A stretch of DNA of 64,000 nucleotides, from the NCBI RefSeq assembly GCF_001677475.2, contig NZ_CP015229.1; one strand, written 5' to 3'. Shown here piece after piece: positions 4,080 through 45,108 of this stretch. The translations under genes and the position numbers were made by a program. The notes beneath the pieces were generated by a model. The model was not told the origin of the DNA, made no database searches, and was given only the letters and a program-made list of their open reading frames with translations. Position 1 is the first letter of the stretch; the number at the start of each line of letters is the position of its first letter. This DNA comes from Escherichia coli. GTDB lineage: Bacteria; Pseudomonadota; Gammaproteobacteria; Enterobacterales; Enterobacteriaceae.

Positions 4080-6866
4080 ATGGTTCAGATCCCCCAAAAT
4101 CCACTTATCCTTGTAGATGGTTCATCTTATCTTTATCGCGCATATCACGCGTTTCCCCCGCTGACTAACAGCGCAGGCGAGCCGACCGGTGCGATGTATG
4201 GTGTCCTCAACATGCTGCGCAGTCTGATCATGCAATATAAACCGACGCATGCAGCGGTGGTCTTTGACGCCAAGGGAAAAACCTTTCGTGATGAACTGTT
4301 TGAACATTACAAATCACATCGCCCGCCAATGCCGGACGATCTGCGAGCACAAATCGAACCTCTGCACGCGATGGTTAAAGCGATGGGACTGCCGCTGCTG
4401 GCGGTTTCTGGCGTAGAAGCGGACGACGTTATCGGTACTCTGGCGCGCGAAGCCGAAAAAGCCGGGCGTCCGGTGCTGATCAGCACTGGCGATAAAGATA
4501 TGGCGCAGCTGGTGACGCCAAATATTACGCTTATCAATACCATGACGAATACCATCCTCGGCCCGGAAGAGGTGGTGAATAAGTACGGCGTGCCGCCAGA
4601 ACTGATCATCGACTTCCTGGCGCTGATGGGTGACTCCTCTGATAACATTCCTGGCGTACCGGGTGTCGGTGAAAAAACCGCGCAGGCATTGCTGCAAGGT
4701 CTTGGCGGGCTGGATACGCTGTATGCCGAACCAGAAAAAATTGCTGGGTTGAGCTTCCGTGGCGCGAAAACAATGGCAGCGAAGCTCGAGCAAAACAAAG
4801 AAGTTGCTTATCTCTCATACCAGCTGGCGACGATTAAAACCGATGTTGAACTGGAGCTGACCTGTGAACAACTGGAAGTGCAGCAACCGGCAGCGGAAGA
4901 GTTGTTGGGGCTGTTCAAAAAATATGAGTTCAAACGCTGGACTGCTGATGTCGAAGCGGGCAAATGGTTACAGGCCAAAGGGGCAAAACCAGCCGCGAAG
5001 CCGCAGGAAACCAGTGTTGCAGACGAAGCACCAGAAGTGACGGCAACGGTGATTTCTTATGACAACTACGTCACCATCCTTGATGAAGAAACACTGAAAG
5101 CGTGGATTGCGAAGCTGGAAAAAACGCCGGTATTTGCATTTGATACTGAAACCGACAGCCTTGATAACATCTCTGCCAACCTGGTCGGGCTTTCTTTTGC
5201 TATCGAGCCAGGCGTAGCGGCATATATTCCGGTTGCTCATGATTATCTTGATGCGCCCGATCAAATCTCTCGCGAGCGTGCACTCGAGTTGCTAAAACCG
5301 CTGCTGGAAGATGAAAAGGCGCTGAAGGTCGGGCAAAACCTGAAATACGATCGCGGTATTCTGGCGAACTACGGCATTGAACTGCGTGGGATTGCGTTTG
5401 ATACCATGCTGGAGTCCTACATTCTCAATAGCGTTGCCGGGCGTCACGATATGGACAGCCTCGCGGAACGTTGGTTGAAGCACAAAACCATCACTTTTGA
5501 AGAGATTGCTGGTAAAGGCAAAAATCAACTGACCTTTAACCAGATTGCCCTCGAAGAGGCCGGACGTTACGCCGCCGAAGATGCTGATGTCACCTTGCAG
5601 TTGCATCTGAAAATGTGGCCGGACCTGCAAAAACACAAAGGGCCGTTGAACGTCTTCGAGAATATCGAAATGCCGCTGGTGCCGGTGCTTTCACGCATTG
5701 AACGTAACGGTGTGAAGATCGATCCGAAAGTTCTGCATAATCATTCTGAAGAGCTCACTCTGCGCCTGGCGGAGCTGGAAAAGAAAGCGCATGAAATTGC
5801 AGGTGAAGAATTTAACCTTTCTTCCACCAAGCAGTTACAAACCATTCTGTTTGAAAAACAGGGCATTAAACCGCTGAAGAAAACGCCGGGTGGCGCGCCG
5901 TCAACGTCGGAAGAGGTACTGGAAGAACTGGCGCTGGACTATCCGTTGCCAAAAGTGATTCTGGAGTATCGTGGTCTGGCGAAGCTGAAGTCGACTTACA
6001 CCGACAAGCTGCCGCTGATGATCAACCCGAAAACCGGGCGTGTGCATACCTCTTATCACCAGGCAGTAACTGCAACGGGACGTTTATCGTCAACCGATCC
6101 TAACCTGCAAAACATTCCGGTGCGTAACGAAGAAGGTCGTCGTATCCGCCAGGCGTTTATTGCGCCAGAGGATTATGTGATTGTCTCAGCGGACTACTCG
6201 CAGATTGAACTGCGCATTATGGCGCATCTCTCGCGTGACAAAGGCTTGCTGACCGCATTCGCGGAAGGAAAAGATATCCACCGAGCTACGGCGGCAGAAG
6301 TGTTTGGTTTGCCTCTGGAAACCGTCACCAGCGAGCAACGCCGTAGCGCGAAAGCGATCAACTTTGGTCTGATTTATGGCATGAGTGCTTTCGGTCTGGC
6401 GCGGCAATTGAACATTCCACGTAAAGAAGCGCAGAAGTACATGGACCTTTACTTCGAACGCTACCCTGGCGTGCTGGAGTATATGGAACGCACCCGTGCT
6501 CAGGCGAAAGAGCAGGGCTACGTTGAAACGCTGGACGGACGCCGTCTGTATCTGCCGGATATCAAATCCAGCAATGGTGCTCGTCGTGCAGCGGCTGAAC
6601 GTGCAGCTATTAACGCGCCAATGCAGGGAACCGCCGCCGACATTATCAAACGGGCGATGATTGCCGTTGATGCGTGGTTACAGGCTGAGCAACCGCGTGT
6701 GCGTATGATCATGCAGGTACACGATGAACTGGTATTTGAAGTTCATAAAGATGATGTCGATGCCGTCGCGAAGCAGATTCATCAACTGATGGAAAACTGT
6801 ACCCGTCTGGATGTGCCGTTGCTGGTGGAAGTGGGGAGTGGTGAAAACTGGGATCAGGCGCACTAA
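4080..6866 (+). CDS. polA: DNA polymerase I
   Basis: 928 aa; 5'-3' exonuclease, 3'-5' exonuclease and polymerase regions recognisable; matches E. coli PolA. Confidence 0.98.
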
Positions 6867-7013
6867 GATTCGCCTGAACATGCCCTTTTTTCGTAAGTAA
6901 GCAACATAAGCTGTCACGTTTTGTGATGGCTATTAGAAATTCCTATGCAACAACTGAAAAAAAATTACAAAAAGTGCTTTCTGAACTGAACAAAAAAGAG
7001 TAAAGTTAGTCGC

Positions 7014-7122
7014 GTAGGGTACAGAGGTAAGATGTTCTATCTTTCAGACCTTTTACTTCACGTAATCGGATTTGGCTGAATATTTTAGCCGCCCCAGTCA
7101 GTAATGACTGGGGCGTTTTTTA
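7014..7122 (+). ncRNA. spf: Spot 42 small RNA
   Basis: GTAGGGTACAGAGGTAAGATGTTCTATCTTTCAGACC...GCCCCAGTCAGTAATGACTGGGGCGTTTTTTA, ending in a terminator hairpin; position between polA and engB. Confidence 0.95.
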
Positions 7123-7147
7123 TTGGGCGAAAGAAAAGATCCGTAAT

Positions 7148-7229
7148 GCCTGATACGCCATGTTTATCAGGCCAACGGTAAAATCGTAATCTATTGAATT
7201 TACGGGCCGGATATGCCACATCCGGCACA
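7148..7229. repeat. REP-like palindromic units
   Basis: gcctgatacgcc...atcaggcc and ggccggatatgccacatccggca hairpins. Confidence 0.5.
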
Positions 7230-7247
7230 AGCATTAAGGCAAGAAAA

Positions 7248-7880
7248 TCATTCGCCGTCCTGCGTTTCTTCTACAGGCTGCATCTCGCTAAACCAGGTAT
7301 CCAGTTTCTGCCGCAGCTTGTCCACGCCTTGTTTCTTCAACGAAGAAAACGTTTCAACCTGCACATCACCGTTAAACGCCAGTACAGCTTCACGCACCAT
7401 ATTCAATTGCGCTTTACGTGCGCCGCTTGCCAGTTTGTCCGCTTTGGTCAGCAGCACCAGAACGGCGATATTGCTGTCTACCGCCCACTCAATCATCTGC
7501 TGATCCAAATCTTTCAGCGGATGGCGAATATCCATTAGCACCACCAGACCTTGCAGGCTCTGACGTTTTTCGAGGTATTCGCCGAGCGCGCGTTGCCATT
7601 TGCGCTTCATCTCTTCCGGGACTTCCGCGTAGCCATAGCCGGGCAGGTCAACCAGACGCTTGCCGTCAGCCACTTCAAACAGGTTGATAAGCTGGGTGCG
7701 CCCTGGGGTTTTTGAGGTACGAGCCAGGCTTTTCTGGTTAGTCAGCGTGTTCAGCGCGCTGGATTTACCTGCGTTGGAACGGCCTGCAAAAGCCACTTCA
7801 ATTCCGGTATCGGAAGGTAAGTGGCGAATATCAGGCGCACTCATCACAAAATGCGTCTGTTGATAATTCAAATTAGTCAA
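7248..7880 (-). CDS. engB: Ribosome-biogenesis GTPase EngB (YihA)
   Basis: 210 aa; P-loop GRSNAGKSS; matches E. coli YihA. Confidence 0.95.
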
Positions 7881-8150
7881 AGCGGTCGTCTCCGTCAGTC
7901 AAAGCTTTGCGGCGATTATACCTGAACCATAATAAAAGGCGGATTTTTCGGCGTGAGCGTTGTAAGTAAAAGCCATACGCTTTGTGAGACATTGCCGATA
8001 GTCTTTATGCGAAATAGCAGAGAAAATTCTGCGATGCATGTCAAATAAGCCATATAAATCAGTGAATTGCTTTTATATAAAACTCTGAAAATGTGCAAAT
8101 ACTGATGGCGGTTGATTGTTTGTTTAAAGCAAAGGCGTAAAGTAGCACCC

Positions 8151-8395
8151 ATAGAGCGAGGACGCTAACAGGAACAATGACTCAGGATGAGGGTCAGGAG
8201 CGCCAGGAGGCGAAGACAGAGGATTGTCAGGAAGACAAACGTCCGGAGACGTAATTAAACGGAAATGGAATCAACACGGATTGTTCCGGCTAATGGAAAA
8301 ACAGGGTGTGTTGGCGGCCTGCAAGGATTGTAAGACCCGTTAAGGGTTATGAGTCAGGAAAAAAGGCGACAGAGTAATCTGTCGCCTTTTTTCTT
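8151..8395 (+). ncRNA. csrC: CsrC small RNA (CsrA-sequestering)
   Basis: About 245 nt with many GGA-containing motifs (CAGGATGA, AGGAGCG, CAGGAGG, CAGGAAG, ACGGA...) ending in hairpin aaaaaaggcgacagagtaatctgtcgcctttttt; lies between engB and yihI. Confidence 0.9.
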
Positions 8396-8461
8396 TGCTT
8401 GCTTTCTGTTAGATTCCGCCGCAAATCTATACTGAATAAAACGGCTAAAAGACGAACCATT

Positions 8462-10600: not shown

Positions 10601-10690
10601 GCCTGATGCGCTACGCTTATCAGGCCTACAAAACCTGTTGAAAATATTGCTTTTGTAGGCCGGATAAGGCGTTCACGCCGCATCCGGCAT
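10601..10690. repeat. REP pair (BIME) downstream of hemN
   Basis: gcctgatgcgctacgcttatcaggcctac and gtaggccggataaggcgttcacgccgcatccggcat. Confidence 0.75.
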
Positions 10691-10722
10691 GAACAAAGAG
10701 CACTTCATCAGCAATCTGAAAC

Positions 10723-13502: not shown

Positions 13503-13529
13503 GAAAAAAGCCCATGCAGAGATGGGCTG
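13503..13529 (-). terminator. glnA terminator
   Basis: Minus-strand hairpin cagcccatctctgcatgggc followed by a T-run. Confidence 0.75.
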
Positions 13530-13733
13530 AAATTTCCACGGCAACTAAAAACCAGTCCCATCAGGCTATTTTATTTGCCATTTTGAACCTGGGCAGTGCT
13601 CGAACTCCTCACGTACCAGTGTACGCTCCGGGTTCTGCGCGCTGTCCGTGTTCAAACTGGCTGCAACAATTACGCCAGATGGGCCTGGTTTGAACCTCCG
13701 GCGTTGTTGCGCCGGGTAGTACAACTTCAACTA
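13503..13733 (-). ncRNA. glnZ: glnA 3'UTR, candidate GlnZ 3'UTR-derived sRNA
   Basis: Inferred from position alone (glnA stop to its terminator); not independently recognisable from sequence. Confidence 0.35.
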
Positions 13734-15143
13734 TTAGACGCTGTAGTACAGCTCAAACTCTACCGGATGCGGAGTCATACGCACGCGGTCATCTTCTTCG
13801 CGACGCAGAGCGATGTACGCATCGATCGCTTCATCCGTGAACACGCCACCGGCTTTCAGGAACTCGCGATCCAGATCCAGTTCGTTCAGTGCTTCTTCCA
13901 GAGAGCCTGCAACCTGTGGGATCTCTTTCGCTTCTTCTGGCGGCAGGTCATACAGGTTTTTGTCCATGGCTTCGCCCGGATGGATCTTGTTCTTGATACC
14001 ATCAAGACCGGCCATCAGCAGGGCAGCAAAGCACAGGTACGGGTTAGCCGCCGGGTCCGGGAAACGTACTTCGATACGACGTGCTTTCGGAGAAGAAACC
14101 ACCGGAATACGGATAGACGCAGAACGGTTACGCGCAGAGTAAGCCAGCATTACCGGTGCTTCGTAGCCCGGGACCAGACGCTTGTAAGAGTTGGTGGTCG
14201 GGTTTGCCAGGGCGTTAATCGCTTTAGCGTGTTTGATTACGCCGCCAATGTAGTACAGCGCCTGCTCAGACAGACCTGCGTATTTATCGCCCGCGAACAG
14301 GTTAACGCCGTTTTTAGACAGTGACATGTGGCAGTGCATACCGGAGCCGTTATCACCGAACATCGGTTTTGGCATAAAGGTCGCAGTTTTACCGAAGCGG
14401 TGCGCTACGTTGTGCACAACATATTTGTAGATCTGAATTTCGTCAGCTTTTTTGGTCATGGTATTGAAGCGGGTAGCCACTTCGTTCTGACCAGCAGTCG
14501 CTACTTCGTGGTGATGGGCTTCAACCACCAGACCCATCTGTTCCATCACCAGACACATTTCAGAACGAATATCCTGAGCAGAGTCTACCGGTGGAACCGG
14601 GAAGTAACCGCCTTTCACTGCCGGACGGTGACCTTTGTTACCACCTTCGTATTGGGTGGAGGAGTTCCATGCGCCTTCGATATCGTCGATAGCAACGTGG
14701 GAACCGGAGATAGATGATCCGAAACGGATGTCATCGAACAGGAAGAATTCAGGTTCTGGCCCGAACAGTACGGTGTCGGCAATGCCAGTGGAACGCAGGT
14801 AATCTTCGGCGCGCTTCGCAATAGAGCGCGGGTCACGGTCATAGCCTTGCAGGGTGCCAGGTTCAAGGATGTCGCAACGGATAATCAGGGTAGAGTCGGC
14901 GAAGAACGGGTCAATCACTGCGGTGGATGCGTCTGGCATCAGCACCATGTCGGATTCGTTAATGCCTTTCCAGCCGCCAATCGAGGAGCCGTCAAACATT
15001 TTGCCTTCTTCGAAGAATTCAGCATTCACCTGATGAGCAGGGATAGTGACGTGCTGTTCTTTACCTTTGGTATCGGTGAAGCGCAAATCAACAAACTTCA
15101 CTTCGTGCTCGTTCAGCATCGTCAGTACGTGTTCAGCGGACAT
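13734..15143 (-). CDS. glnA: Glutamine synthetase
   Basis: 469 aa; sequence matches GlnA (adenylylation-site region present). Confidence 0.97.
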
Positions 15144-15224: not shown

Positions 15225-15370
15225 AAAGCGAAAACTGTGCCAACTTTTAAATTGCCCCTAAAAGGCGTTATCATGCTTAACATCGTGCAAAAGGGCTGCA
15301 CCATGATGTGAATGTTGCACCAATATAGTGCTTCAATGGAAACATTAAGCACCATATTGGTGCAATGACC
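15225..15370 (-). promoter_or_regulatory. glnA control region: sigma54 promoter glnAp2 and upstream NtrC sites
   Basis: Minus strand TTGGCACAGTTTTCGCT (-24 GG / -12 GC); NtrC-type palindromes gcaccatattggtgca (15350..15365) and tgcaccatgatgtgaatgttgcacca. Confidence 0.8.
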
Positions 15371-15515
15371 TTTGGATAACCCTTTTTATGCTCCGTGAAA
15401 GCGATCACAAAGGGACTCTGCAATACTTGTTTGCGGAGGATGTTTGTGATCCTGTTTTGTAGTGCGATTAATCCGTGTACAATAACGCGCTATTTCTAAT
15501 GCCTGAGGCAAAGTT

Positions 15516-17339
15516 GTGATCGAAAAATTGCGTAATATCGCCATCATCGCGCACGTAGACCATGGTAAAACCACCCTGGTAGACAAGCTGCTCCAACAAT
15601 CCGGTACGTTCGACTCTCGTGCCGAAACCCAAGAGCGCGTGATGGACTCCAACGATTTGGAGAAAGAGCGTGGGATTACCATCCTCGCGAAAAACACCGC
15701 TATCAAATGGAATGATTACCGTATCAACATCGTTGATACCCCGGGGCACGCCGACTTCGGTGGTGAAGTTGAACGTGTAATGTCCATGGTAGACTCAGTG
15801 CTGCTGGTGGTTGACGCATTTGACGGCCCGATGCCGCAAACGCGCTTCGTAACCAAAAAAGCGTTTGCTTACGGCCTGAAGCCGATTGTTGTTATCAACA
15901 AAGTTGACCGCCCTGGCGCGCGTCCTGACTGGGTTGTGGATCAGGTATTCGATCTGTTCGTTAACCTCGACGCGACCGACGAGCAGCTGGACTTCCCGAT
16001 CGTTTACGCTTCTGCGCTGAACGGTATCGCGGGTCTGGACCACGAAGATATGGCGGAAGACATGACTCCGCTGTATCAGGCGATTGTTGACCACGTTCCT
16101 GCGCCGGACGTTGACCTTGACGGTCCGTTCCAGATGCAGATTTCTCAGCTCGATTACAACAGCTATGTTGGCGTTATCGGCATTGGCCGCATCAAGCGCG
16201 GTAAAGTGAAGCCGAACCAGCAGGTTACTATCATCGATAGCGAAGGCAAAACCCGCAACGCGAAAGTCGGTAAAGTGCTGGGCCACCTCGGTCTGGAACG
16301 TATCGAAACTGATCTGGCGGAAGCTGGCGATATCGTTGCGATCACGGGCCTTGGCGAACTGAACATTTCTGACACCGTTTGCGACACGCAAAACGTTGAA
16401 GCGCTGCCGGCACTCTCCGTTGATGAGCCGACCGTTTCTATGTTCTTCTGCGTTAACACCTCACCGTTCTGCGGTAAAGAAGGTAAGTTCGTAACGTCTC
16501 GTCAGATCCTGGATCGTCTGAACAAAGAACTGGTACACAACGTTGCGCTGCGCGTAGAAGAAACCGAAGACGCCGATGCGTTCCGCGTTTCTGGTCGTGG
16601 CGAACTGCACCTGTCTGTTCTGATCGAAAACATGCGTCGTGAAGGTTTCGAACTGGCGGTATCCCGTCCGAAAGTTATCTTCCGTGAAATCGACGGTCGT
16701 AAACAAGAGCCGTATGAAAACGTGACTCTGGACGTTGAAGAACAGCATCAGGGTTCTGTAATGCAGGCGCTGGGCGAACGTAAAGGCGACCTGAAAAACA
16801 TGAATCCAGACGGTAAAGGCCGCGTACGTCTCGACTACGTGATCCCAAGCCGTGGTCTGATTGGCTTCCGTTCTGAGTTCATGACCATGACTTCCGGTAC
16901 TGGTCTGCTGTACTCCACCTTCAGCCACTACGACGACGTACGTCCGGGTGAAGTGGGTCAGCGTCAGAACGGCGTACTGATCTCTAACGGTCAGGGTAAA
17001 GCGGTCGCGTTCGCGCTGTTCGGTCTGCAGGATCGCGGTAAGCTGTTCCTCGGTCACGGTGCAGAAGTTTACGAAGGTCAGATTATCGGTATTCATAGCC
17101 GCTCTAACGACCTGACTGTAAACTGCCTGACCGGTAAGAAACTGACCAACATGCGTGCTTCCGGTACTGACGAAGCCGTTGTTCTGGTTCCGCCTATCCG
17201 CATGACTCTGGAACAAGCTCTGGAGTTCATCGATGATGACGAACTGGTAGAAGTGACTCCGACCTCTATCCGTATTCGTAAACGTCACCTGACGGAAAAT
17301 GATCGTCGTCGCGCTAACCGCGCACCGAAAGACGATTAA
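15516..17339 (+). CDS. typA: Ribosome-associated translational GTPase BipA/TypA
   Basis: 607 aa from GTG at 15516; G-domain [14 protein letters not shown]. Confidence 0.95.
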
Positions 17340-17361
17340 TTTCGTTTTTTAGCCATAAAAA

Positions 17362-17389
17362 ACCTGCCAGCGATGGCAGGTTTTTTTTT
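17362..17389 (+). terminator. Rho-independent terminator after typA
   Basis: aacctgccagcgatggcaggtt followed by T9. Confidence 0.8.
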
Positions 17390-17555
17390 ACCTGTCGTGA
17401 GCGCACACCAATGCGAGTATCTCCCTTATAAGTCTGTGATTACGTCAATAGAGAGCTTTGTCACAATTATCTGCAAAGTCATACGCCGTTAATTGCTTTC
17501 TTTTTTGGCGTAAGCGTAAGATGCTTCATCTGGTTTAAACCAAAAGGATTAAACA

Positions 17556-20649: not shown

Positions 20650-20680
20650 AACGAAAACCGTATCAACCGAAGTTTCAATT

Positions 20681-21469
20681 TCAGGATACTTCTTGCTCAG
20701 CAACCACCAGTTCAACATTCTCTTCACTTAACAACTGGCAGAAAGAATTGGGAGGCGGGGCATCAGTAAAAAAAGCCCTGACATTCCGTGCATTGCCAAT
20801 TGAAACGGCAGCAGACGCGGCAAACTTCGTATGATCGGCCACTAACAATGTATTCCGCGCATGTTTAATCATCGTTCTTGCGACTAACGCTTCATTGACA
20901 TCAAATTCCAGTAGGGTGCCGTCATGTTCAATGGCACCTATACTGGTGATTAAATAATCTGCGCGGAAGCCTTCAATAAAATCCACGGCTCCTGGGCCGA
21001 TAATCCCGCCGTTATGAGCGCGTAAAGTGCCTCCCGGCACCATCACTTCAATATCCTGATTCTTATAAAGAATCTGTGCCACACGTAGGCTGTTAGTGAT
21101 AATGCGTAAATCACGACGGTTGAGTAATGCCCTGGCAACGGCTTCTACGGTTGTACCGATGGTGATAAAGACGGTACAGCGTTCGGGAAGGTAATCGGCG
21201 ACTGCCTCAGCGATCGCCCGTTTCTCGGCGGTGAGCGAAAGTTCCCGTTGCTCAAAAGCGGTATTCATGACGCTGGAGACGCGCCCGGCCCCTCCATGAT
21301 GACGGGTGATCAACCCCTGCTCACTGAGTTTTCGGATATCCCGGCGCACGGTTTGCGTTGAAACATCCAGCAGTTGTGCCAGTTCTTCAATATTCATATA
21401 ACCGCGTTCTGCGATTAGATGAACGAGTTGGTCATGGCGTGGATTACCTGTCACTTCGATGATACTCAT
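20681..21469 (-). CDS. DeoR-family transcriptional regulator (YihW/CsqR-like)
   Basis: 262 aa; N-terminal HTH (STQTVRRDIRKL) and DeoR C-terminal sugar-phosphate-binding domain; related to but not the same as K-12 YihW as I remember it. Confidence 0.85.
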   Translation of the reverse strand: MSIIEVTGNPRHDQLVHLIAERGYMNIEELAQLLDVSTQTVRRDIRKLSEQGLITRHHGGAGRVSSVMNTAFEQRELSLTAEKRAIAEAVADYLPERCTVFITIGTTVEAVARALLNRRDLRIITNSLRVAQILYKNQDIEVMVPGGTLRAHNGGIIGPGAVDFIEGFRADYLITSIGAIEHDGTLLEFDVNEALVARTMIKHARNTLLVADHTKFAASAAVSIGNARNVRAFFTDAPPPNSFCQLLSEENVELVVAEQEVS

Positions 21470-21508
21470 GAATACTCCCTTGCCCCTCCTCGGTATATGT
21501 TTACCATT

Positions 21509-22405
21509 TTACGCATAAAGTGACAAAAATGATTCGGTTTGCTCACGATTAGGAATGCCGGCCCGACCGCCAGGCTGGGTACATTTCATCGCGGCAACCG
21601 CACTGGCAAAACGAATAGCCTCTTTTGTTGGCATTTTTTCTGCCAACGCTACCGCGAGTGCGCCGTGAAAAACATCGCCTGCTCCAGTGGTATCAACCAC
21701 ATTGACAGAAAATGCCTCCTGTTGACACAAATGATCATCTTCAATCCACAACGATCCTTCAGAACCCAGCGTAACATACACTTTACCTGCTGTTTGTGTC
21801 GTTGCCTGGAACAAACCTTCTTCAGGTGACTGCAGGCCAGTCATGCGTTTCAGCCCCGGTGTTGAGAACACGGCGTGATCGGCAAGCGCGACAAGTGGAG
21901 AAATATCCTGCGGTGTCATATCGGCGTCTAAAAGCGTTGTCACCCCCGCAAGGCGCGCTAGCGAGAATGCTTTTTCAGTACCGCTATGCCAGCGAACATC
22001 GGCCAGAATCAGATCATAACGAGAGAAATCGATCGCTTCTAACCATTCGGCATCAGTACCGAGATCGGGACTTGGATAATTAACGATAATCCGTTCGCCA
22101 TGCTGATCAACGAGGATCGCTGATTGCGACGAACGGGCGTTAGGATATCGGCGGCAAAATGCGGTATTGACGCCCCAACCCTCAAGTTCTGCAAGTAAGG
22201 TATTTCCACAACTGTCATCGCCGACGCGACCGATGAAATCAACCTCCACGCCAAGCTTTGCGATTGCAACAGCGGCTGTTGCTGCCGGGCCGCCACCAAT
22301 CTCAAGATAATGATTTGCCTGATATTTCCCGCCGCCATCCGGCAGAGTGAGCAAAGAATAAATCCTGTCCTGAACTGTGATACCCACGCATGCAATTTTT
22401 GTCAT
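21509..22405 (-). CDS. PfkB-family sugar kinase (YihV-like)
   Basis: 298 aa from ATG at 22405 with AGGA RBS; PfkB signature [17 protein letters not shown]; ORF track start 22456 is a probable over-extension. Confidence 0.85.
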
Positions 22406-22577
22406 ATTTGTCTTGTCCTGTTTAATTTTGTCGTCTTTGGTCAATTTAAATGACACAAATGATCAAATTAGTGATGTGTGTCGTGTTTTTGAACATAAAT
22501 TACAAATATGCTCAAAAACAGACGAAAACGAATTTTCAATTGTCATTATTTTGTCAATGTCAGACAGGAGAGTATTC
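22406..22577. promoter_or_regulatory. AT-rich divergent promoter/operator region between the kinase and reductase genes
   Basis: 172-nt AT-rich spacer with recurring TTTGTC / GACGAAAACGA-type motifs; candidate operator for the adjacent DeoR regulator. Confidence 0.4.
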
Positions 22578-23456
22578 ATGGCAACCATTGCATTTCTCGG
22601 GCTGGGGCAGATGGGTAGCCCAATGGCTAACAATCTATTGCGAAAAGGGCATTCATTGCAGGTATTTGATGTCAATGCACAGGCCGTCGATGCGCTAGTT
22701 ACGCAGGGGGCCACTGCGGCACAAACCCCAGCGGAAGCGGCAGCAGGCGCTGAATTTATCATCACTATGCTTCCCAATGGTGACATTGTTCGACAGGTTC
22801 TGTTGGGGGAAAAAGGCGTCTGTGAGGCTGTTTCATCTGACGCGTTATTGATTGATATGTCGACTATTCATCCCTTACAGACCGATGCATTAATACGGGA
22901 GTTACAAGAAAAAGGCATCAGTATGATGGACGCCCCCGTGGGCAGAACATCCGTGAATGCGATTGATGGCACATTGCTGATTTTAGCGGGTGGCACTGAT
23001 GAGCAGATTGCGCGTGCACGCCCGATTCTCATGTGCATGGGTAATGAGCTGGTCGAGGCTGGCGGCCCAGGAATGGGGATCCGCGTGAAGCTAATTAACA
23101 ACTATATGAGCATTGCGCTTAATGCGCTGTCCTCCGAGGCCGCTGTGTTATGTGAGTCACTGGGATTAAATCTTGATGTCGCAATTAAGGTGATGAGTGG
23201 TACGGCAGCAGGGAAAGGACATTTTACGACCACCTGGCCTGGCAAAGTGCTGAAAGGCGATCTTTCACCCGCCTTCATGGTGGATCTGGCGTTGAAAGAT
23301 CTGCGTATTGCAGTTGACGTCGCTCGGGAGACGGGGGCACCGCTCAATATGGGGATTGCAGCAGAAAGTTATTACGCCGCAGCAAGTCAAGACGGCAAAG
23401 GGCGGCAGGACTGGAGCGCCCTGCTAAATCAGGTTCGCCAGCAGGCTGGTCTTTAA
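22578..23456 (+). CDS. NAD(P)-dependent beta-hydroxyacid dehydrogenase family reductase (YihU / GarR-like)
   Basis: 292 aa from ATG at 22578 with RBS CAGGAGAG; dinucleotide fold [13 protein letters not shown]; ORF track start 22377 overlaps the divergent gene and is rejected. Confidence 0.85.
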
Positions 23457-23480
23457 TTTTATCTATTAACAGGAGTTTCT

Positions 23481-24368
23481 ATGTCATCCCACTTCACCCC
23501 ATTTACGCTGAAAGATATCTCCCGCCCAGGTGGTGGATTCGCCATGTTAGCTGTCGATCAGCGTGAGGCCATGCGCCTGATGTTTGCGGCAGCAGGGCAG
23601 CCCAAACCCATCGCCGACAGTGTACTCACCGATTTTAAAGTTGCCGCGACCCGAATCCTTTCTCCTTATGCTTCTGCCGTTCTGGCGGATAAACAATTTT
23701 GTCTTGAGCAAATAGTCGAGCAGGGCGCTGTTGCTAATTCTTGCGGCCTGATTGTCGCTGCCGATCTTTTTATCCCAGGTAATGGCATCCCGGTTGATAG
23801 CGTTGAAATAGATATGTCCGTCGACCCGCATAAAGCCCGTGAAATGGGGGCTAAGGCAATGAAATTACTTGTACTCTGGCGTGAAGATGAACCCGCAGAG
23901 GAACGTCTGGCAATGGTTGATAAATTTGTTCGTCGCTGCCGTAGTGCCGGACTGGTTAGCATTATTGAACCTGTGGTGCGTCCACCTCGTCGCGGTTGGG
24001 ACTTTGATCGTGAAAGCGCCATTGCCGCGGCCGCCGCAGAGCTTGGTGGAACAGAGGCTGATCTTTACAAAGCCGAGATGCCATTAGGGGGCAAAGGCGA
24101 TGAAAAAACCTTACTTGCCGCCTGTCAGCAACTTAACGATCAGATGAAGATGCCGTGGGTAATTCTTTCTTCTGGCGTTGATGCCGATATTTTTGGCCGT
24201 GCAGTAAGTATTGCCATGAAAGGTGGGGCGTCGGGCTTCCTGGCTGGACGAGCGGTTTGGGCGTCGGTTGTTGGTGCACAAGATCCACAAACTATGCTGC
24301 GCGATGTCTCCGTTCCACGCTTGCAACGGCTGGCTGAAATTGTCGATGAAGGTATCGCGCAACGCTAA
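23481..24368 (+). CDS. Class I aldolase family protein (YihT / sulfofructosephosphate-aldolase-like)
   Basis: 295 aa; shares blocks [45 protein letters not shown] with K-12 YihT as I remember it. Confidence 0.85.
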
Positions 24369-24400
24369 TCCCCTATGGATATCGATTCTGGAGAATAACA

Positions 24401-25411
24401 ATGGATAAAAGTACCCAGGTTTTATTTTCAGATATTGGGAAAGTCACCACTCAATATGTTGAAGTACCACACCAGGAACTTAAACCGCACGAAGTGCGGA
24501 TTGCGCCTGTGTTCTATGGGATATGCGGTTCGGATCTGCATGTTCTGAAAGGCGGTCATCCGTTTGCCAAACCACCTGTCGTCCCCGGTCATGAAATTGC
24601 AGCGCGCGTTGCGGAAGTTGGCAGCGACGTTAAAAATGTACAGCCGGGCGATCATGTTGTGGTCGATCCCATCATGGCTTGCATGGAATGCCGAGCCTGC
24701 AAAGCAGGACGTTTTAATCTTTGTGAACCACCGCAGGTTGCTGGTTTTCGCGCACCGGGCTTTGCTCGCTCACAACACATTGTTCCTGCGCGTAATTGCC
24801 ATGTCGCACCAGCCTCTTTACCGCTAAAAGTGTTAGCCTTTGCCGAACCGGCGGCTTGTGCTCGTCACTGCGTTAACCGAATGCCGAAAGCTTCTCTGGA
24901 AAGCGTACTGGTGATTGGTGCCGGAACGATAGGCTTATCCATCGTGCAGGCACTGCGCATTATGGGGGCAGGTAAGATTACCGTGATTGAACCTGACGCT
25001 GCCAAACGCGCGCTGGCGTTAAAGCTGGGCGCAGCAGAAGTTTGGGCACCAGGTGAGCTGGCCGCAGATGTGCGATTTACGGGGGCGATTGATGTCGTTG
25101 CAGCGCAGGCCACGCTTAACGATGCATGTACCCGTGTATATGCCGGAGGCACCGTCGTGTGCATGGGCGTACCAAGTGGGCCGCGTGAAATACCATTACC
25201 TATGATGCAACGTTTCGAGCGTGACTTGCTCAACTCTGGCATGTACATCCCTGAAGATTTCGATGCTGTTATCGAATGGCTGGCGGATGGGCGGTTTGAT
25301 ACCAGTGAACTGGTTACCGATTTATTTGCCATTGAGGATGCAGCGGCGGCATTCGAACGCGCGCAGCAAAATGACTCCATAAAGGTCATGCTGCAATTTG
25401 CGCCGGAATGA
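24401..25411 (+). CDS. Zn-dependent medium-chain dehydrogenase (polyol / sorbitol-dehydrogenase-like)
   Basis: 336 aa; catalytic-Zn Cys (GICGSDLHV), GHE motif (PGHEIAARV), structural-Zn C-x2-C-x2-C-x7-C (CMECRACKAGRFNLC), NAD site GAGTIGL. Confidence 0.85.
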   Translation: MDKSTQVLFSDIGKVTTQYVEVPHQELKPHEVRIAPVFYGICGSDLHVLKGGHPFAKPPVVPGHEIAARVAEVGSDVKNVQPGDHVVVDPIMACMECRACKAGRFNLCEPPQVAGFRAPGFARSQHIVPARNCHVAPASLPLKVLAFAEPAACARHCVNRMPKASLESVLVIGAGTIGLSIVQALRIMGAGKITVIEPDAAKRALALKLGAAEVWAPGELAADVRFTGAIDVVAAQATLNDACTRVYAGGTVVCMGVPSGPREIPLPMMQRFERDLLNSGMYIPEDFDAVIEWLADGRFDTSELVTDLFAIEDAAAAFERAQQNDSIKVMLQFAPE

Positions 25412-25480
25412 TTTTCTAAATCTCTGTCTGGCGCTGCGTCACGTCAGCGCCACCCTACAACAATTAAAAAGGACACTGCG

Positions 25481-26914
25481 ATGAGTCAAATCACCAGTCC
25501 TGCAACTTATTCAATTAGTCGGCCACAGGACGTAATTGATATTGTTAATAAGAACTCTGCAATCAACACCAGTATCGGCGTTATTTTTATTGCTTTGGGC
25601 GGCATATTGATTGATGCCTACCAGGCGGCGATGGTGGGGTTTGGTAATAAATACATTGCCGCTCAATTCGGCATTTCGCCGGGTCTTGCTGCAACCGTCA
25701 ATGCATCAGTATTAATCGCCGCGTTAATTGGCGGTTTATTAGCGAACCGAGTAATAAACCGCTTTGGGCAAAAGCGGGCATTTATTATTGGCATGGGGCT
25801 GTGCACCATCGGTGCTGCAGCGGTAGCTATTGCTCCCAGTATCTGGTGGGTGCTGGTGTGCCGCGTCATCATGGGCTTTGGTTTAGGCATCGACTTCCCT
25901 TTGGCAACCAATGCCGTGGCAGAGCTTCGTGGTTCAACGTCGAAGAAAACCGGAACGTCGGTCAACCTCTGGCAAATGGCCTGGTATGTTTCGACAACCG
26001 TTGTTTATTTGGTGCTTTTGCCGCTGCTTCTGTCGGGTATCGCTGAAGAACAATTGTGGCGTTACGGAATATTCATCGGAGCTATTTTTGCAGTCATCTT
26101 CATGATTTTGCGTTACTTCTTTATTGGTGAATCCGCAATGTGGGCTGCACGCGTCGGGCGTTACCAGGAAGCGTGCGACATTCTGGGAAAACGTTATGGT
26201 GTTCAGGCTCGCGTTGCGGCATCGGGTACAACAGAAGCGAAATTCTCGGAAAAAGCAGAGAATAAATACAGTGGTGGATATGGCATCTTATTTAATGATC
26301 GTTACCGCAAACGCACCATTCTTGGTTGTGTCGTGGCAACCATGCAGGCGTGGCAATATAACGCCGTAGGTGTTTATCTTCCTCTTACGTTGGCGGGAAT
26401 AATAAGTGGCGGGCTTACTGGCGCGTTGACCGGTTCTGCCGTCGTGAATGCCCTTTGTGGGGTGACAGGTGGGATGATCGGCTCGTTTATTCTCCAACGA
26501 CTGGGTACTCGCCGACAGTCGATGTATGGATTTGCTGTTGTGACCTTAGCATTGCTGTCGTTAGGCGCACTGGCAACGACTAATCCCTGGCTGTCTTTAG
26601 GGTTATTGGGATCAATTATTTTCTTCCATTCAGCGGGTCCTGGTGGGCTGGGCATGACCATTGCCACACTCTCTTATCCTCCCGCTATTCGTCCTACTGG
26701 GGTCGGATTTGCCCGCGCTATTATGCGCACAGGGGCAATTGCAGGACTCATTTTCTGGCCGATGCTGTGGGGTACGTTGAAAACTGAAGCGTTTTATTGG
26801 TTGGCAATTGTGCCATTCCTGGGGTTCCTGACCTGCGTATTGATTAATTGGGAACCTTTGGGAGCAAATGTTGATGCTGAGGATGCAGAGGTTCTGGCTG
26901 AATTGAAGAAATAA
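25481..26914 (+). CDS. MFS transporter (sugar / metabolite:H+ symporter-like)
   Basis: 477 aa; 12 predicted TM segments; MFS motif-A-like NRFGQKRA. Confidence 0.85.
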   Translation: MSQITSPATYSISRPQDVIDIVNKNSAINTSIGVIFIALGGILIDAYQAAMVGFGNKYIAAQFGISPGLAATVNASVLIAALIGGLLANRVINRFGQKRAFIIGMGLCTIGAAAVAIAPSIWWVLVCRVIMGFGLGIDFPLATNAVAELRGSTSKKTGTSVNLWQMAWYVSTTVVYLVLLPLLLSGIAEEQLWRYGIFIGAIFAVIFMILRYFFIGESAMWAARVGRYQEACDILGKRYGVQARVAASGTTEAKFSEKAENKYSGGYGILFNDRYRKRTILGCVVATMQAWQYNAVGVYLPLTLAGIISGGLTGALTGSAVVNALCGVTGGMIGSFILQRLGTRRQSMYGFAVVTLALLSLGALATTNPWLSLGLLGSIIFFHSAGPGGLGMTIATLSYPPAIRPTGVGFARAIMRTGAIAGLIFWPMLWGTLKTEAFYWLAIVPFLGFLTCVLINWEPLGANVDAEDAEVLAELKK

Positions 26915-26951
26915 ATTAATGCGCATCGGCTTAAACCGATGCGCATTAATT
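26915..26951. other. Perfect 15-bp inverted repeat between the two transporter genes
   Basis: aattaatgcgcatcgg cttaaa ccgatgcgcattaatt; no following T-run. Confidence 0.6.
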
Positions 26952-27012
26952 CAAACTGCCCACGTTTAGTGGTTCGTATCCCAGATTTCTCGCCTACCAG
27001 GAGAGGAAAATT

Positions 27013-28362
27013 ATGTCTGAAAAGTTACCCGCACCGCGTGAAGGGCTTTCCGGTAAAGCCATGAGACGTGTCGTTATGGGCAGTTTCGCAGGCGCGTTAA
27101 TGGAATGGTATGACTTCTTTATTTTTGGCACGGCAGCAGGACTGGTATTTGCACCGCTGTTTTATCCAGACAGCGATCCTTTTATAGGTCTTATAGCTTC
27201 CTTTGCGACCTTTGGTGTCGGTTTTCTGACTCGTCCTTTAGGTGGCATCGTCTTTGGTCATTTTGGCGATAAAATCGGGCGAAAAATAACACTTATCTGG
27301 ACGCTGGCTATTGTCGGTTGCTCCACATTTTTGATTGGTTTTATTCCGACGTATCAGGAAATTGGCATTTGGGCACCGCTTGTATTAATGGTGCTGCGTT
27401 TGATTCAGGGCTTTGGTCTTGGTGGCGAGTACGGCGGAGCGGCATTGATGACCATAGAATCAGCGCCCGAATCCCGACGCGGATTTTTAGGTTCACTCCC
27501 GCAAACGGCTGCGTCTGTGGGTATTATGCTGGCAACCGGTATTTTTGCTCTCTGTAACCATTTTCTTACTTCGGAGCAGTTTCTCTCCTGGGGATGGCGC
27601 ATTCCGTTTTGGCTTTCTGCGGTGATGTTGATCGTTGGGCTGTTTATCCGCCTGCATACCGAAGAAACGCTGGATTTTCAAAAGCAAAAAACGACGAATA
27701 ATAAAGAAAAGTCCGTTCCTCCGTTGATTGAATTATTCAAAAAACATCCACGAAATATTTTATTGGCACTGGGTGCGAGGCTGGCGGAAAGTGTCTCCTC
27801 TAATATTATTAACGCCTTTGGTATTGTCTATATTTCCAGCCAATTAGCATTGTCGCGAGATATTCCCCTGACGGGTATGTTGATTGCCTCGGCGATCGGT
27901 ATTTTCAGTTGTCCATTGGTTGGATGGTTATCAGATCGTATAGGTCAAAAAAGTCTGTATTTGTCGGGAGCAGGATTTTGTGTCCTGTTCGCGTTTCCTT
28001 TCTTCTTATTACTGGATAGCAAAAGTACGCTCATCATCTGGTGCAGTATGATCCTCGGCTACAACTTAGGTCCGACGATGATGTTTGCCGTGCAGCCAAC
28101 ACTTTTCACCCGCATGTTCGGTACCAAAGTACGATATACCGGCCTTTCTTTTGCTTATCAATTTTCCGCGATTCTTGGCGGACTAAGCCCCCTTATCGCC
28201 TCAAGTTTGCTGGCGCTAGGGGGAGGAAAACCGTGGTATGTCGCTCTGTTTTTATTTGCTGTCTCAGTTCTTTCCTTTGTTTGCGTCTGGCTGATTGAGC
28301 CGACCGATGAACAAGAAACCGCTTCTTACCGCTACATCAGGGAACAATCTCATGAAAACTGA
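27013..28362 (+). CDS. MFS transporter, metabolite:H+ symporter (MHS) family
   Basis: 449 aa; MHS-type motifs GHFGDKIGRK and GGEYGGAALM. Confidence 0.85.
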   Translation: MSEKLPAPREGLSGKAMRRVVMGSFAGALMEWYDFFIFGTAAGLVFAPLFYPDSDPFIGLIASFATFGVGFLTRPLGGIVFGHFGDKIGRKITLIWTLAIVGCSTFLIGFIPTYQEIGIWAPLVLMVLRLIQGFGLGGEYGGAALMTIESAPESRRGFLGSLPQTAASVGIMLATGIFALCNHFLTSEQFLSWGWRIPFWLSAVMLIVGLFIRLHTEETLDFQKQKTTNNKEKSVPPLIELFKKHPRNILLALGARLAESVSSNIINAFGIVYISSQLALSRDIPLTGMLIASAIGIFSCPLVGWLSDRIGQKSLYLSGAGFCVLFAFPFFLLLDSKSTLIIWCSMILGYNLGPTMMFAVQPTLFTRMFGTKVRYTGLSFAYQFSAILGGLSPLIASSLLALGGGKPWYVALFLFAVSVLSFVCVWLIEPTDEQETASYRYIREQSHEN

Positions 28363-29239
28363 ACGAAAAAACGAGCATTACCTGGCGCTACAACAGGCGT
28401 TTGACGCGCCATGGCCTGGGCCTGTAGGAGAGTTAGTGACGCTGGAAAAAGGCAATATTCACCTGCAGATTTATCCGCATGATGGTGCCAGGATAACCTC
28501 GTTAAAGGCATTTGGTTCTGAAGTATTACGCCAATGGCAGCCGCAGCGCAGAGCTTTTCAGTATGGCTGTTTCCCAATGGTGCCGTGGGCAGGGCGACTG
28601 GGGAATGCGACGCTGAATGCTGGTGGGCAATGTTATTCTTTACCCGCCAATAAACCACCACATGCGTTGCATGGTATGGCTTGTTACTCAACGTGGGAAA
28701 TCATCGACAAAACAATAGATTCCCTGACTTTACGTATGCCCCTGGCTTCACCGTGGCCCTGGCAAGGGGAAGTGATTCAGACTTTTTTGCTGGAGAACGA
28801 TGCGCTGGTTTTGCAACTGGAAATCCATTCACATACCGATACATTCCCGGCCTCTGCAGGCTGGCATCCGTGGTTTGCGAAAAAGCTGACTCCGCAAAAT
28901 ACAGAATCGTTGCAGGTGCTTTTTGATGCGGACTGGCAAGAGGAAGCGGGTAGTGATGAACTGCCAACTGGAAATCGCATCTCTCCTCAAGCTGGTCCCT
29001 GGGATGACTGTTTTGGTTTTTATGACGGGGTGAAGGTTAAGTTACTGTGGCCTGGTAAACTCACGATGACCATGACCTCTTCTGCAAACAGTCTGGTGGT
29101 ATTTGATAAACAGCCCGATGCCACCTGTGTTAATCCGCTTACTCAGGCACCTAACGCAATAAATCTAACGCCGGAATTGGTGACATCAGATAAGCCGCTG
29201 GTCATCGAAACTCGTTGGCAATTTACACCTGAATCTTAA
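28352..29239 (+). CDS. Aldose 1-epimerase (mutarotase) family protein (YihR-like)
   Basis: 295 aa from ATG at 28352 (MKTERKNEHY...) with RBS AGGGA; overlaps the upstream transporter by 11 nt; the 28295 TTG start is less likely. Confidence 0.8.
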   Translation: MKTERKNEHYLALQQAFDAPWPGPVGELVTLEKGNIHLQIYPHDGARITSLKAFGSEVLRQWQPQRRAFQYGCFPMVPWAGRLGNATLNAGGQCYSLPANKPPHALHGMACYSTWEIIDKTIDSLTLRMPLASPWPWQGEVIQTFLLENDALVLQLEIHSHTDTFPASAGWHPWFAKKLTPQNTESLQVLFDADWQEEAGSDELPTGNRISPQAGPWDDCFGFYDGVKVKLLWPGKLTMTMTSSANSLVVFDKQPDATCVNPLTQAPNAINLTPELVTSDKPLVIETRWQFTPES

Positions 29240-29249
29240 CCATTCATCT

Positions 29250-29290
29250 ATTGCGAAAAAGCCAGTGAAATTACTCTGCTTTTTCGCAAT
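29250..29290 (+). terminator. Strong hairpin downstream of the epimerase gene
   Basis: attgcgaaaaagc cagtgaaattactct gctttttcgcaat (13-bp perfect stem); no clean T-run. Confidence 0.5.
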
Positions 29291-29379
29291 CAGCATCACA
29301 AGATTACCCTTATTGCCACATAGCCAAACCCATCCTTTCCCGCTACAGTTAATTTCTTGTGGCGCGAAAGGAGGCAAAA

Positions 29380-44631: not shown

Positions 44632-45108
44632 TAATCGAACTCCATGAAAAAATATTTCAGTTAATTGTAACGGCGGGGCGGGTTTGTGATGAGCGCGGAT
44701 ATGTCGTGAAGTCGTGACAATATAAAGCAGAGTGAAGGATAAATTTTGCGGGGTAAGGCACATAGTGATTGGTAAAATAAATGTTGTGAATAAAAATTAA
44801 TTCTTTAATGATTTTATGAATGTTTAACTGTCGCGGATATTTTGCTGCAACGTTATTTATATTTGTGGCTTATGAGTCAGCGTGAATCATATCTAATATT
44901 TTTTACGATATTTAGTTAAAAACGGCACTATTGTTATATTCCTCACGTTCCAGGAAATCAGCGGATTTACTCATATTATGCAGCGGGATACTATCCATCG
45001 GCCTGCTGAAGTTGGATTAAAAATTCGAAAGTGCACACCTTATATTTCTCTATATGCGTATTCCTTTTGGAAAGCGTAGGGTCTCTTTTATTTCAGGGAA
45101 CGTAAATA

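Follow-up and report, generated by a model that had tools for sequence, protein, structure and literature searches.

Four known regulatory small RNAs in the polA-fieF region of a non-K-12 Escherichia coli chromosome, with a GlnZ sequence of the O111 type

Small RNA genes in the polA-fieF region

The window analyzed here is a 64,000-nucleotide segment of a non-K-12 Escherichia coli chromosome that extends from polA to fieF. In the syntenic region of K-12, RefSeq annotates spf, spfP, csrC, glnZ and cpxQ. When these genes were mapped to the window, spf and spfP were 100% identical, csrC matched at 245/246 positions and cpxQ at 57/58; for glnZ, only the terminator could be placed. We consider it almost certain that the window contains four known regulatory sRNAs, namely Spot 42, CsrC, CpxQ and GlnZ, and that each of them works as published (Table 1). 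The present analysis is based on sequence identities, Rfam matches, motifs, the GlnZ allele type, the repeat nature of an insert in GlnZ and pairing with K-12 target leaders; expression, processing and regulation in this strain are what we infer from the literature. All four RNAs, their mechanisms and the GlnZ allele type have already been published, and no new biology is involved. The discovery value is small and the main use of these results lies in annotation, as the automated RefSeq annotation of close relatives leaves out these sRNAs.

A previous sequence-only reading of the window had named all four sRNAs, and these names were correct. It had suggested an Rfam scan and a comparison with the annotated K-12 sRNAs as checks, and regarded the absence of an Rfam match for Spot 42 or CsrC as a refutation. 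Both RNAs scored above the Rfam gathering threshold (122.8 vs 80 bits for Spot 42 and 277.9 vs 61 bits for CsrC), and both matched the annotated K-12 genes. Such a refutation is applicable to only two of the four RNAs, Spot 42 and CsrC. It is blind to GlnZ and CpxQ, since no Rfam 15 model attains its threshold on either RNA, and Rfam is unusable to confirm or refute these two. With a permissive E-value, the only matches found in the GlnZ and CpxQ regions were chance-level ones to sX9 and Ysr49 (E 0.05) and a reversed match to Hrs1, which is discussed below.

Table 1. Coordinates of the sRNAs, their parent genes and internal features in the window
Feature	Position	Strand	Remarks
Spot 42 (spf) sRNA	7014..7122	+	Classical 109-nt form; K-12 RefSeq annotates 111 nt, to 7124
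spfP ORF within Spot 42	7032..7079	+	15 codons plus stop; translates to MFYLSDLLLHVIGFG; 100% identical to the K-12 b4837 CDS
Spot 42 Rho-independent terminator	7090..7122	+	11-bp stem 7090-7115, then U tract; terminator scan and Rfam structure line
CsrC sRNA, CsrA-sequestering decoy	8151..8396	+	RF00084; 245/246 identical to K-12 csrC (b4457); 14 GGA motifs
CsrC terminator hairpin	8356..8395	+	18 pairs; terminator scan and Rfam structure line
GlnZ, O111 type, complete glnA 3'UTR, 230 nt	13504..13733	-	Length, AGGUUCAAA repeats and seed position as in the published O111 type
GlnZ Rho-independent terminator	13504..13528	-	7-bp stem and U tract; matches the 3' end of K-12 GlnZ at 25/25 positions; hairpin in the fold
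GlnZ target-pairing core UUUAGUUGCCGUGGAAA	13533..13549	-	Includes the 12-nt seed; common to the K-12, O157 and O111 types
145-nt insert (O111 vs 85-nt O157 type)	13553..13697	-	Single copy of a dispersed intergenic repeat that forms a hairpin
Second AGGUUCAAA copy	13582..13590	-	Inside the repeat element
glnA CDS, GlnZ parent mRNA	13734..15143	-	98.7% identical to K-12 glnA
cpxP CDS, CpxQ parent mRNA	58873..59373	+	99.6% identical to K-12 cpxP
CpxQ sRNA from the cpxP 3'UTR	59383..59440	+	57/58 identical to K-12 cpxQ b4716 (58 nt)

Spot 42 and SpfP

The spf gene (7014-7124, +) is located between polA (4080-6866, +) and yihA/engB (7880-7250, -), on the same strand as polA. The RF00021 model matched positions 7004-7122 of the plus strand over its full length (model 1-115, E 3.6e-24), and K-12 spf (b3864, 111 nt in RefSeq) could be aligned to 7014-7124 without a mismatch; the span read previously from the letters, 7014..7122, is that of the classical 109-nt RNA. 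The predicted fold (z = -5.1) was as expected, with one hairpin at the 5' end, two at the 3' end and a single-stranded stretch. In the 147 nt upstream of Spot 42, between polA and spf, one 1-nt indel was the only deviation from K-12. No difference from K-12 Spot 42 and SpfP was detectable, with the same sequence, polA-yihA location, terminator and an intact spfP. Judging from this identity, Spot 42 would be a primary transcript under CRP-cAMP repression, and should bind Hfq and base-pair with mRNAs for non-preferred carbon use, such as galK and others. The regulation of Spot 42 and its dual-function role with SpfP have been covered elsewhere (PMC8916003). The coding of SpfP, a 15-aa protein that binds CRP (PMC8916003), by Spot 42 was absent from the sequence-only reading.

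GlnZ in the glnA 3'UTR

The glnA gene ends at 13734 on the minus strand and the 3' end of K-12 GlnZ maps to 13504. The previous assignment of the glnA 3'UTR to GlnZ was therefore right in substance, as both the seed and the conserved terminator are present, with an end (13503) that was off by one. The seed TTGCCGTGGAAA occurs only once in the window (13544..13533, -; 0.01 occurrences expected by chance). In the RNA, the 12-nt seed 5'-UUGCCGUGGAAA-3' occupies UTR positions 190-201, immediately before the conserved terminator that separates glnA from glnL. The aceE-specific 5' flank of the seed (UUUAG) is intact.

Pairing was examined by a sliding-window test with the 17-nt shared core against K-12 target leaders, which served as proxy. 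The best duplexes formed at the published sites of sucA (-18.3 kcal/mol), glnP (-18.4 kcal/mol) and aceE (-20.7 kcal/mol), with a median of approximately -8 kcal/mol. RNAduplex runs with long GlnZ flanks were dropped as they gave inconsistent sites and large internal loops. GlnZ classes and targets have been described in a preprint (10.1101/2022.04.01.486790). In the expected mechanism, GlnZ would be released from the NtrC-induced glnA mRNA, would undergo processing by RNase E and would repress sucA, glnP and aceE through its seed.

By its sequence, GlnZ in this window is the published 230-nt O111 type and not the K-12 form (Miyakoshi 2022, PMC9731577). The O111 type has been described as an O157-type backbone with an insertion, two direct AGGUUCAAA repeats 98 nt apart and a seed beside the terminator (PMC9731577). 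Two copies of AGGUUCAAA are found here, at 13697..13689 and 13582..13590 of the minus strand (UTR positions 37-45 and 144-152), and exactly 98 nt separate them, in agreement with that study. Length, repeats and seed position are the same as those published; the sequence is identical to the alleles of O111 and O26 strains, and no difference from the O111 type was found. O111-type GlnZ was present at full length in 992 of 5,426 complete E. coli genomes, many copies being 100% identical. On northern blots it has been observed and is induced on glutamine, and under nitrogen limitation the RNA appears together with processed species, also after transfer of the allele into K-12 (PMC9731577).

The K-12 type (b4836, 194 nt; class III of Walling et al.) shares its parent gene, seed core and terminator with the GlnZ of the window and presumably acts on the same targets. 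However, in K-12 (approximately 194-197 nt) the seed is at the 5' end beside the stop codon and a REP element lies between seed and terminator, whereas here the seed is beside the terminator and a different repeat is located upstream of it. Of K-12 GlnZ, no more than the last 25 nt could be aligned with the locus, and the sequence of the window does not qualify as K-12 type. What the two have in common is limited to the 25-nt terminator and to the 12-nt seed with a few bases beside it; the rest could not be aligned, and the REP segment of K-12 GlnZ matched other REP copies in the window but not the glnA locus. The relationship with the O157 type (EsrF, 85 nt; class I of Walling et al.) is much closer, in that the UTR of the window equals the O157 type plus a 145-nt insert. 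UTR positions 1-36 and the block from seed to terminator are collinear between the two, and a 1-nt deletion was observed directly after the seed (GGAAAUUUC here vs GGAAACUUUC in the O157 type). The difference from the O157 type thus totals 145 nt and not 98, which is our own addition to the published O111 description. Because three alleles exist, the K-12 coordinates or sequence of GlnZ cannot be transferred to approximately 70% of E. coli genomes.

The insert as a dispersed repeat

The insert lies between the stop-codon-proximal stem and the seed. Members of its repeat family were detected in 5425 of 5426 genomes, at a median of 5 places per genome and with 80-90% identity; other copies occupy the nfi-hemE, cysP-ucpA, pheM-pheS, qseG-qseE and rlmL-ycbX intergenic regions. 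Folding of the insert yielded a long hairpin (z = -5.8), and in the repeat consensus 48 pairs, 13 of them with compensatory changes, are conserved across six loci. Because it pairs within itself, the insert leaves seed and terminator in the local arrangement of the short form. Membership of the O111-type insert in a dispersed repeat family adds a small detail on the remodelling of 3'UTR-derived sRNAs.

ERIC/IRU was considered as the identity of the insert and rejected. The ERIC consensus core was absent from the window at up to three mismatches, local alignment to a true ERIC copy scored 18 vs 16.2 +/- 2.3 for shuffles (z = 0.8), and the copy number (median of 5 places per genome) differs from that of the ERIC core (at least 9). 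A published name for the family could not be found in the literature, where RSA, Box C and IRU were considered, and we left it unnamed. Its size and copy number presumably resemble those of the "RSA" repeats listed for K-12.

Possible effects of the insert on GlnZ activity

Folding of the complete 230-nt GlnZ predicts that most of the seed pairs with UTR positions 6-18. The probability of the seed being unpaired is 0.29, as compared with approximately 0.6 in the other two alleles; unprocessed GlnZ may therefore be less active. In hypothetical 5'-truncated species of 61-131 nt the seed is predicted to be partly open (0.36-0.43), and predicted accessibility increases to 0.65-0.84 without the first 20-45 nt or in a 46-nt 3' species.

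One reading of these folds is that the insert, as a low-copy MITE-like hairpin repeat, alters the action of the sRNA by bringing the 5' end of the UTR to the seed and masking it, so that activity would depend on extra processing, which might be trimming of the 5' end by RNase E or cleavage of the hairpin by RNase III. In K-12 GlnZ, the REP hairpin is cleaved. We regard this model as rather unlikely. If it were true, approximately 18% of E. coli strains would have a differently timed GlnZ response and, together with the REP insert of K-12, GlnZ would be one sRNA that has been remodelled repeatedly by intergenic repeats.

The same predictions could be taken further, to suggest that the glnA 3'UTR is a mere UTR with a passenger repeat and a terminator, in which no functional GlnZ is made, as the insert would hide the seed or interfere with processing. 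The values of 0.29 for the full-length RNA and 0.36-0.43 for the truncated species would fit such a view, as would the lack of an Rfam model supporting GlnZ. However, seed, UUUAG flank and terminator are all intact, the allele is shared by 992 genomes and 100% conserved across many of them, and accessibility is predicted to recover once the 5' end is removed or in the 46-nt species. In addition, northern blots have revealed O111-type GlnZ and its processed species, also in K-12 (PMC9731577). It is thus highly improbable that the locus lacks a functional GlnZ, and we retain the O111-type sRNA.

CpxQ and the Rfam Hrs1 model

CpxQ starts 10 nt after the cpxP stop codon, as in K-12, has the same orientation as cpxP and extends to the terminator of that gene. 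The identification of the cpxP 3'UTR with CpxQ in the sequence-only reading is borne out by the identity to K-12 (57/58), although its start, 59380, was 3 nt early with respect to 59383. The single change relative to K-12, C42A at 59424, is in the terminator loop, and the 5' pairing region is identical. In the fold, positions 59414-59432 form the terminator hairpin, and a U8 tract comes after it. By analogy with K-12 CpxQ (background in PMC9438474), RNase E with the help of Hfq would cut the RNA from the cpxP mRNA, and the product would repress mRNAs of inner-membrane proteins as well as skp.

Rfam 15 contains no CpxQ model. Instead, Hrs1 (RF02628) matched positions 59368-59440 over the full model and on the minus strand only, with 44.5 bits (E 5e-08), below its gathering score of 56.4. 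Taken at face value, a full-length match of this E-value confined to the minus strand would mark a genuine antisense RNA opposite CpxQ. However, the defining paper placed hrs1 between cpxP and fieF, on the strand of both genes and with a Rho-independent terminator (PMC4070566, Table 1), and the Rfam consensus opens with poly-A and continues into a GC hairpin, the layout of a terminator in reverse. Erwinia hrs1 is homologous to CpxQ and likewise lies between cpxP and fieF; Rfam Hrs1 represents the CpxQ orthologue of Erwinia. Most simply, the Rfam model appears to be stored as the reverse complement and the match to be CpxQ in reverse orientation, and an antisense RNA has very little probability left.

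CsrC

RF00084, a member of the CsrB/RsmB clan, matched CsrC at 8151-8404 (+) with E 1.2e-87 over model positions 1-255. K-12 csrC mapped to 8151-8396 with one mismatch, A144U at 8294, and the GGA adjacent to it is kept. The repeated GGA motifs noted in the sequence-only reading held up together with the name (277.9 bits, 245/246): the 246-nt RNA has 14 of them, as compared with 3.1 +/- 1.9 over every stretch of that size on either strand and 7.7 +/- 2.2 in shuffled CsrC. The number of 14 is the maximum of the window and was reached only by windows overlapping CsrC. In the Rfam alignment, several of the GGA sites are placed in hairpin loops. The RNA matches the model at full length and agrees with K-12 CsrC in its yihA-yihI location, its terminator and its number of GGA motifs (14); A144U is the one difference.

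The region upstream of csrC, between yihA and csrC, is nearly identical to that of K-12 (2 SNPs). No sigma-70-like site was detected between 6860 and 8480 in a search for consensus promoters; this result is uninformative, as the search is strict and the promoter regions of both K-12 genes are conserved here by identity. From its likeness to K-12, CsrC would be a primary transcript activated by BarA-UvrY, whose GGA sites are expected to titrate the CsrA protein from its mRNA targets (for background on CsrB/C, see PMC7652899).

In the automated RefSeq annotation of close relatives, a bogus pseudogene sits inside CsrC. In the closest strain, 7/2, RefSeq/PGAP has annotated a pseudo-CDS ("hypothetical protein; frameshifted; internal stop") at the equivalent of positions 8177-8343, which would make the locus a decayed protein-coding gene, but this reading has practically no chance and is already effectively refuted: the annotation itself lists a frameshift and an internal stop, the Rfam match extends over the whole model, including every hairpin and the terminator, the RNA is nearly identical to the experimentally characterised K-12 csrC, and its GGA motifs are as dense as is typical of CsrA decoys.

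Small RNAs of the window and their K-12 counterparts

The 1.8-kb stretch around the sRNA finding matched 5,422 of 5,426 complete E. coli genomes with 95-100% identity (best, 99.6%), and the window is collinear with K-12 MG1655 4,042,887-4,110,000 at ~98-99% identity, except for a few replaced segments. These sequence comparisons identify it as a chromosome segment of a non-K-12 E. coli, running from yihD/dsbA through polA, glnALG and cpxRA-cpxP to pfkA. The sequence-only reading had recognised Spot 42 and CsrC directly and had placed GlnZ and CpxQ by position; all four identities were supported here, and all four sRNAs are already known. In the syntenic K-12 region, the ncRNA genes annotated by RefSeq number just four, spf, csrC, glnZ and cpxQ, and spf also contains the small CDS spfP; the list is thus complete relative to K-12. 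Rfam could test only two of the four and recovered both, Spot 42 and CsrC, above the cut-off. Comparison with K-12 coordinates agreed for spf, csrC and cpxQ, and K-12 GlnZ (194 nt) aligned with the glnA 3'UTR over the last 25 nt only (13528..13504). Mapped features are listed in the table.

Features located in the window and copies of the GlnZ insert repeat (L004, L006, L012, L013 and L015 denote other sequences that carry copies)
Feature	Position	Strand	Remark
Spot 42 terminator	7090-7115	+	11-bp stem, then U tract
CsrC terminator hairpin	8356-8395	+	18 pairs
Repeat copy, window	13553-13697	-	
Repeat copy, L004	2486-2641		
Repeat copy, L006	1501-1619		
Repeat copy, L012	1201-1326		
Repeat copy, L013	1201-1322		
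Repeat copy, L015	1201-1322		
glnA CDS	15143..13734	-	mapped
ES222	15327-15434	+	Rfam gathering-level; glnA-bipA spacer
STnc370	17324-17392	+	Rfam gathering-level; 53 nt beyond K-12-inferred bipA 3' end
SECIS_3	41143-41201	-	Rfam gathering-level; position fits fdoG
naRNA4	56563-56640	-	Rfam gathering-level
cpxP CDS	58873-59373	+	K-12 cpxP mapped
ES036	61645-61686	-	Rfam gathering-level

Spot 42 and CsrC

The RNA at 7014-7122 is exactly the classical Spot 42, a 109-nt Hfq-binding RNA that is repressed by CRP-cAMP and represses galK, srlA, fucI, nanC and further genes that serve the use of non-preferred carbon sources (PMC8916003). When the whole window was searched at gathering thresholds, RF00021 matched 7004-7122 (+) with 122.8 bits (cut-off 80, E 3.6e-24). 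K-12 spf mapped to 7014-7124 and spfP to 7032-7079, both with zero mismatches, the latter translating as MFYLSDLLLHVIGFG; SpfP, the 15-aa product of Spot 42, is CRP-binding and strengthens the same feed-forward loop (PMC8916003). The 109-nt fold, consisting of a hairpin at the 5' end, a single-stranded part and two hairpins on the 3' side, was much more stable than shuffled sequence (z = -5.1), and a 1-nt indel is the sole difference from K-12 in the 147-nt polA-spf spacer.

For CsrC, RF00084 matched over the full model at 8151-8404 (+) with 277.9 bits (cut-off 61, E 1.2e-87). K-12 csrC mapped to 8151-8396 with the single difference A144U (8294), the neighbouring GGA being unaffected, and the yihA-csrC spacer differs from K-12 by 2 SNPs. 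The reported richness in GGA also held: CsrC has 14 such motifs, a number reached only by 246-nt windows overlapping it, compared with a mean of 3.1 +/- 1.9 for every 246-nt window of the 64 kb, both strands included, and 7.7 +/- 2.2 for shuffled CsrC composition. CsrB and CsrC sequester CsrA through multiple high-affinity GGA sites; their transcription is activated by BarA-UvrY, and while a preferred carbon source is available they decay via CsrD and RNase E (PMC7652899).

The RefSeq/PGAP annotation of the closest strain (7/2, NZ_CP023820.1) includes neither spf nor csrC. At the equivalent of 8177-8343 (+), wholly within CsrC, it places a pseudogene ("hypothetical protein; frameshifted; internal stop"), which is an annotation artefact on this known sRNA.

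CpxQ and the Rfam Hrs1 model

CpxQ is an RNA of ~60 nt that arises when RNase E, with Hfq, cleaves the cpxP mRNA; it constitutes the non-coding arm of the Cpx envelope-stress response, and represses nhaB, skp, agp, ydjN, fimA and cfa (PMC9438474). Its placement by position was borne out directly downstream of cpxP, where the 58-nt K-12 cpxQ mapped to 59383-59440 with 57/58 identity. The single change, C42A (59424), is confined to the loop of the terminator hairpin, and thus the 5' pairing region is identical to that of K-12.

Rfam has no CpxQ model, and the only significant Rfam match in this region was RF02628 (Hrs1) at 59368-59440 on the minus strand, antisense to CpxQ (44.5 bits, below the cut-off of 56.4; E ~5e-08). 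In Erwinia amylovora, hrs1 is a 74-nt gene with a Rho-independent terminator, located between cpxP and fieF and sharing the strand of these two genes (PMC4070566 Table 1). This location and strand make Hrs1 the orthologue of CpxQ. The Rfam consensus starts with poly-A followed by a GC hairpin, that is, a terminator read backwards, so it seems that the stored model is the reverse complement. The apparent reversal of CpxQ in the Hrs1 model is one of two mildly new points of this analysis.

The GlnZ allele

Three types of the E. coli glnA 3'UTR have been described: K-12 (197 nt), O157 (85 nt) and O111, the last with a 230-nt UTR carrying a "98 nt insertion flanked by 5'-AGGUUCAAA-3' direct repeats"; the GlnZ seed is 5'-UUGCCGUGGAAA-3' (Miyakoshi et al., PMC9731577). 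Walling et al. (10.1101/2022.04.01.486790) reported equivalent classes and demonstrated repression of glnP, sucA and aceE by the various forms. The glnA 3'UTR of the window (13733..13504, minus strand, from which UTR positions are numbered) is exactly 230 nt long, with AGGTTCAAA at UTR 37-45 and 144-152, 98 nt separating the copies. The seed, at UTR 190-201 (13544..13533), is directly followed by the conserved terminator; it is found a single time in the window, where 0.01 occurrences would be expected by chance. Judged by sequence, this UTR has all the features that define the O111 type. The positional assignment of GlnZ thus stands, with the correction that the allele is not the K-12 form. 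In K-12 GlnZ, AGUUGCCGUGGAAA adjoins the stop codon, whereas in global alignment it adjoins the terminator in the window. The central REP segment of K-12 GlnZ matched not this locus but other REP copies of the window, which confirms, at the level of sequence, that the K-12-specific part is a generic REP element absent from this glnA 3'UTR.

The full-length O111-type allele was found in 992 of the 5,426 complete genomes, many with 100% identity; the 85-nt form accounts for ~2,580 and the K-12 form for 1,571. Genomes with the identical allele carry no annotation in the GlnZ region. Northern blots of O111 strains grown on glutamine showed UTR-sized GlnZ and processed species, and the allele was also expressed when moved into K-12 (PMC9731577). 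A weak Rfam match to the Yersinia sRNA Ysr49 over the 3' half (13504-13626, minus strand; 21.7 bits, GA 95, E 0.05) is probably due to chance or to the terminator.

The GlnZ insert as a dispersed repeat

By alignment, the real difference between the O111-type and O157:H7 UTRs is 145 nt (UTR ~37-181, 13697..13553). In blastn searches, this segment was found with 80-90% identity in 5,425 of the 5,426 genomes, each having it at 5 places in the median. Further copies are situated in the nfi-hemE, cysP-ucpA, pheM-pheS, qseG-qseE and rlmL-ycbX intergenic regions, and placement is always between genes, in transcribed regions. The copies have a common core of ~125-130 nt with terminal inverted repeats, flanked in most by TTAG or CTAAG, and the consensus folds as a single 48-pair hairpin with both-sided changes at 13 pairs among six loci. 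The second AGGUUCAAA copy is internal to the element, and other copies keep GGCCUCAAA or GGGCCAAAA. ERIC was rejected as the identity of the family, as comparison with a true ERIC copy was no better than with shuffled sequence (z = 0.8). No name for the family was found in the literature, and the GlnZ paper (PMC9731577) makes no mention of a repeat element at this position. Membership of the GlnZ insert in a repeat family is the other mildly new point.

The 230-nt GlnZ fold has z = -5.8, with the insert forming one long self-contained stem-loop, because of which the O157-type backbone (stop-proximal hairpin, seed and terminator) would most likely be kept in three dimensions. The same argument has been made for the REP insert in K-12 GlnZ (Walling et al., 10.1101/2022.04.01.486790). 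A 17-nt core, UUUAGUUGCCGUGGAAA, is common to all three alleles and includes the U-rich 5' flank, which is important for aceE according to the GlnZ paper. It pairs best at exactly the published K-12 leader sites of sucA (-18.3), glnP (-18.4) and aceE (-20.7 kcal/mol), against a median of ~-8 kcal/mol over all windows. Between seed and terminator (13529-13532, minus strand) the O111-type allele has a 1-nt deletion (O111 GGAAAUUUC, O157 GGAAACUUUC, K-12 GGAAACUUUU), just 3' of the seed and outside the validated pairings.

In the full-length 230-nt form, the seed was predicted to be largely taken up in pairing with UTR nt 6-18, the mean P(unpaired) being 0.29 (O157 type, 0.61; K-12 type, 0.58). 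The predicted value rose to 0.65-0.70 without the first 20-45 nt and reached 0.84 for a 46-nt 3' species. This purely thermodynamic prediction suggests that processing may matter more for the O111-type allele, and is not evidence of a functional difference.

Other observations

Three window segments (20669-29313, 32745-34793 and 44355-46543) have no K-12 counterpart, and the K-12 frv operon is mostly absent. The first holds an alternative sugar-utilisation cluster in place of the K-12 sulfoquinovose cluster (ompL to csqR), with two MFS transporters, a Zn-dependent alcohol dehydrogenase, a sugar kinase, an aldolase and an aldose epimerase; this alternative cluster is present in 1,325 of the 5,426 genomes. 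Among the remaining Rfam matches, we take naRNA4 and ES036 to be REP-type repeats. K-12 GlnZ nt 63-103 (REP) matched 10654-10692, 47736-47769 and 61687-61724 with 83-86% identity, the last of which adjoins ES036.
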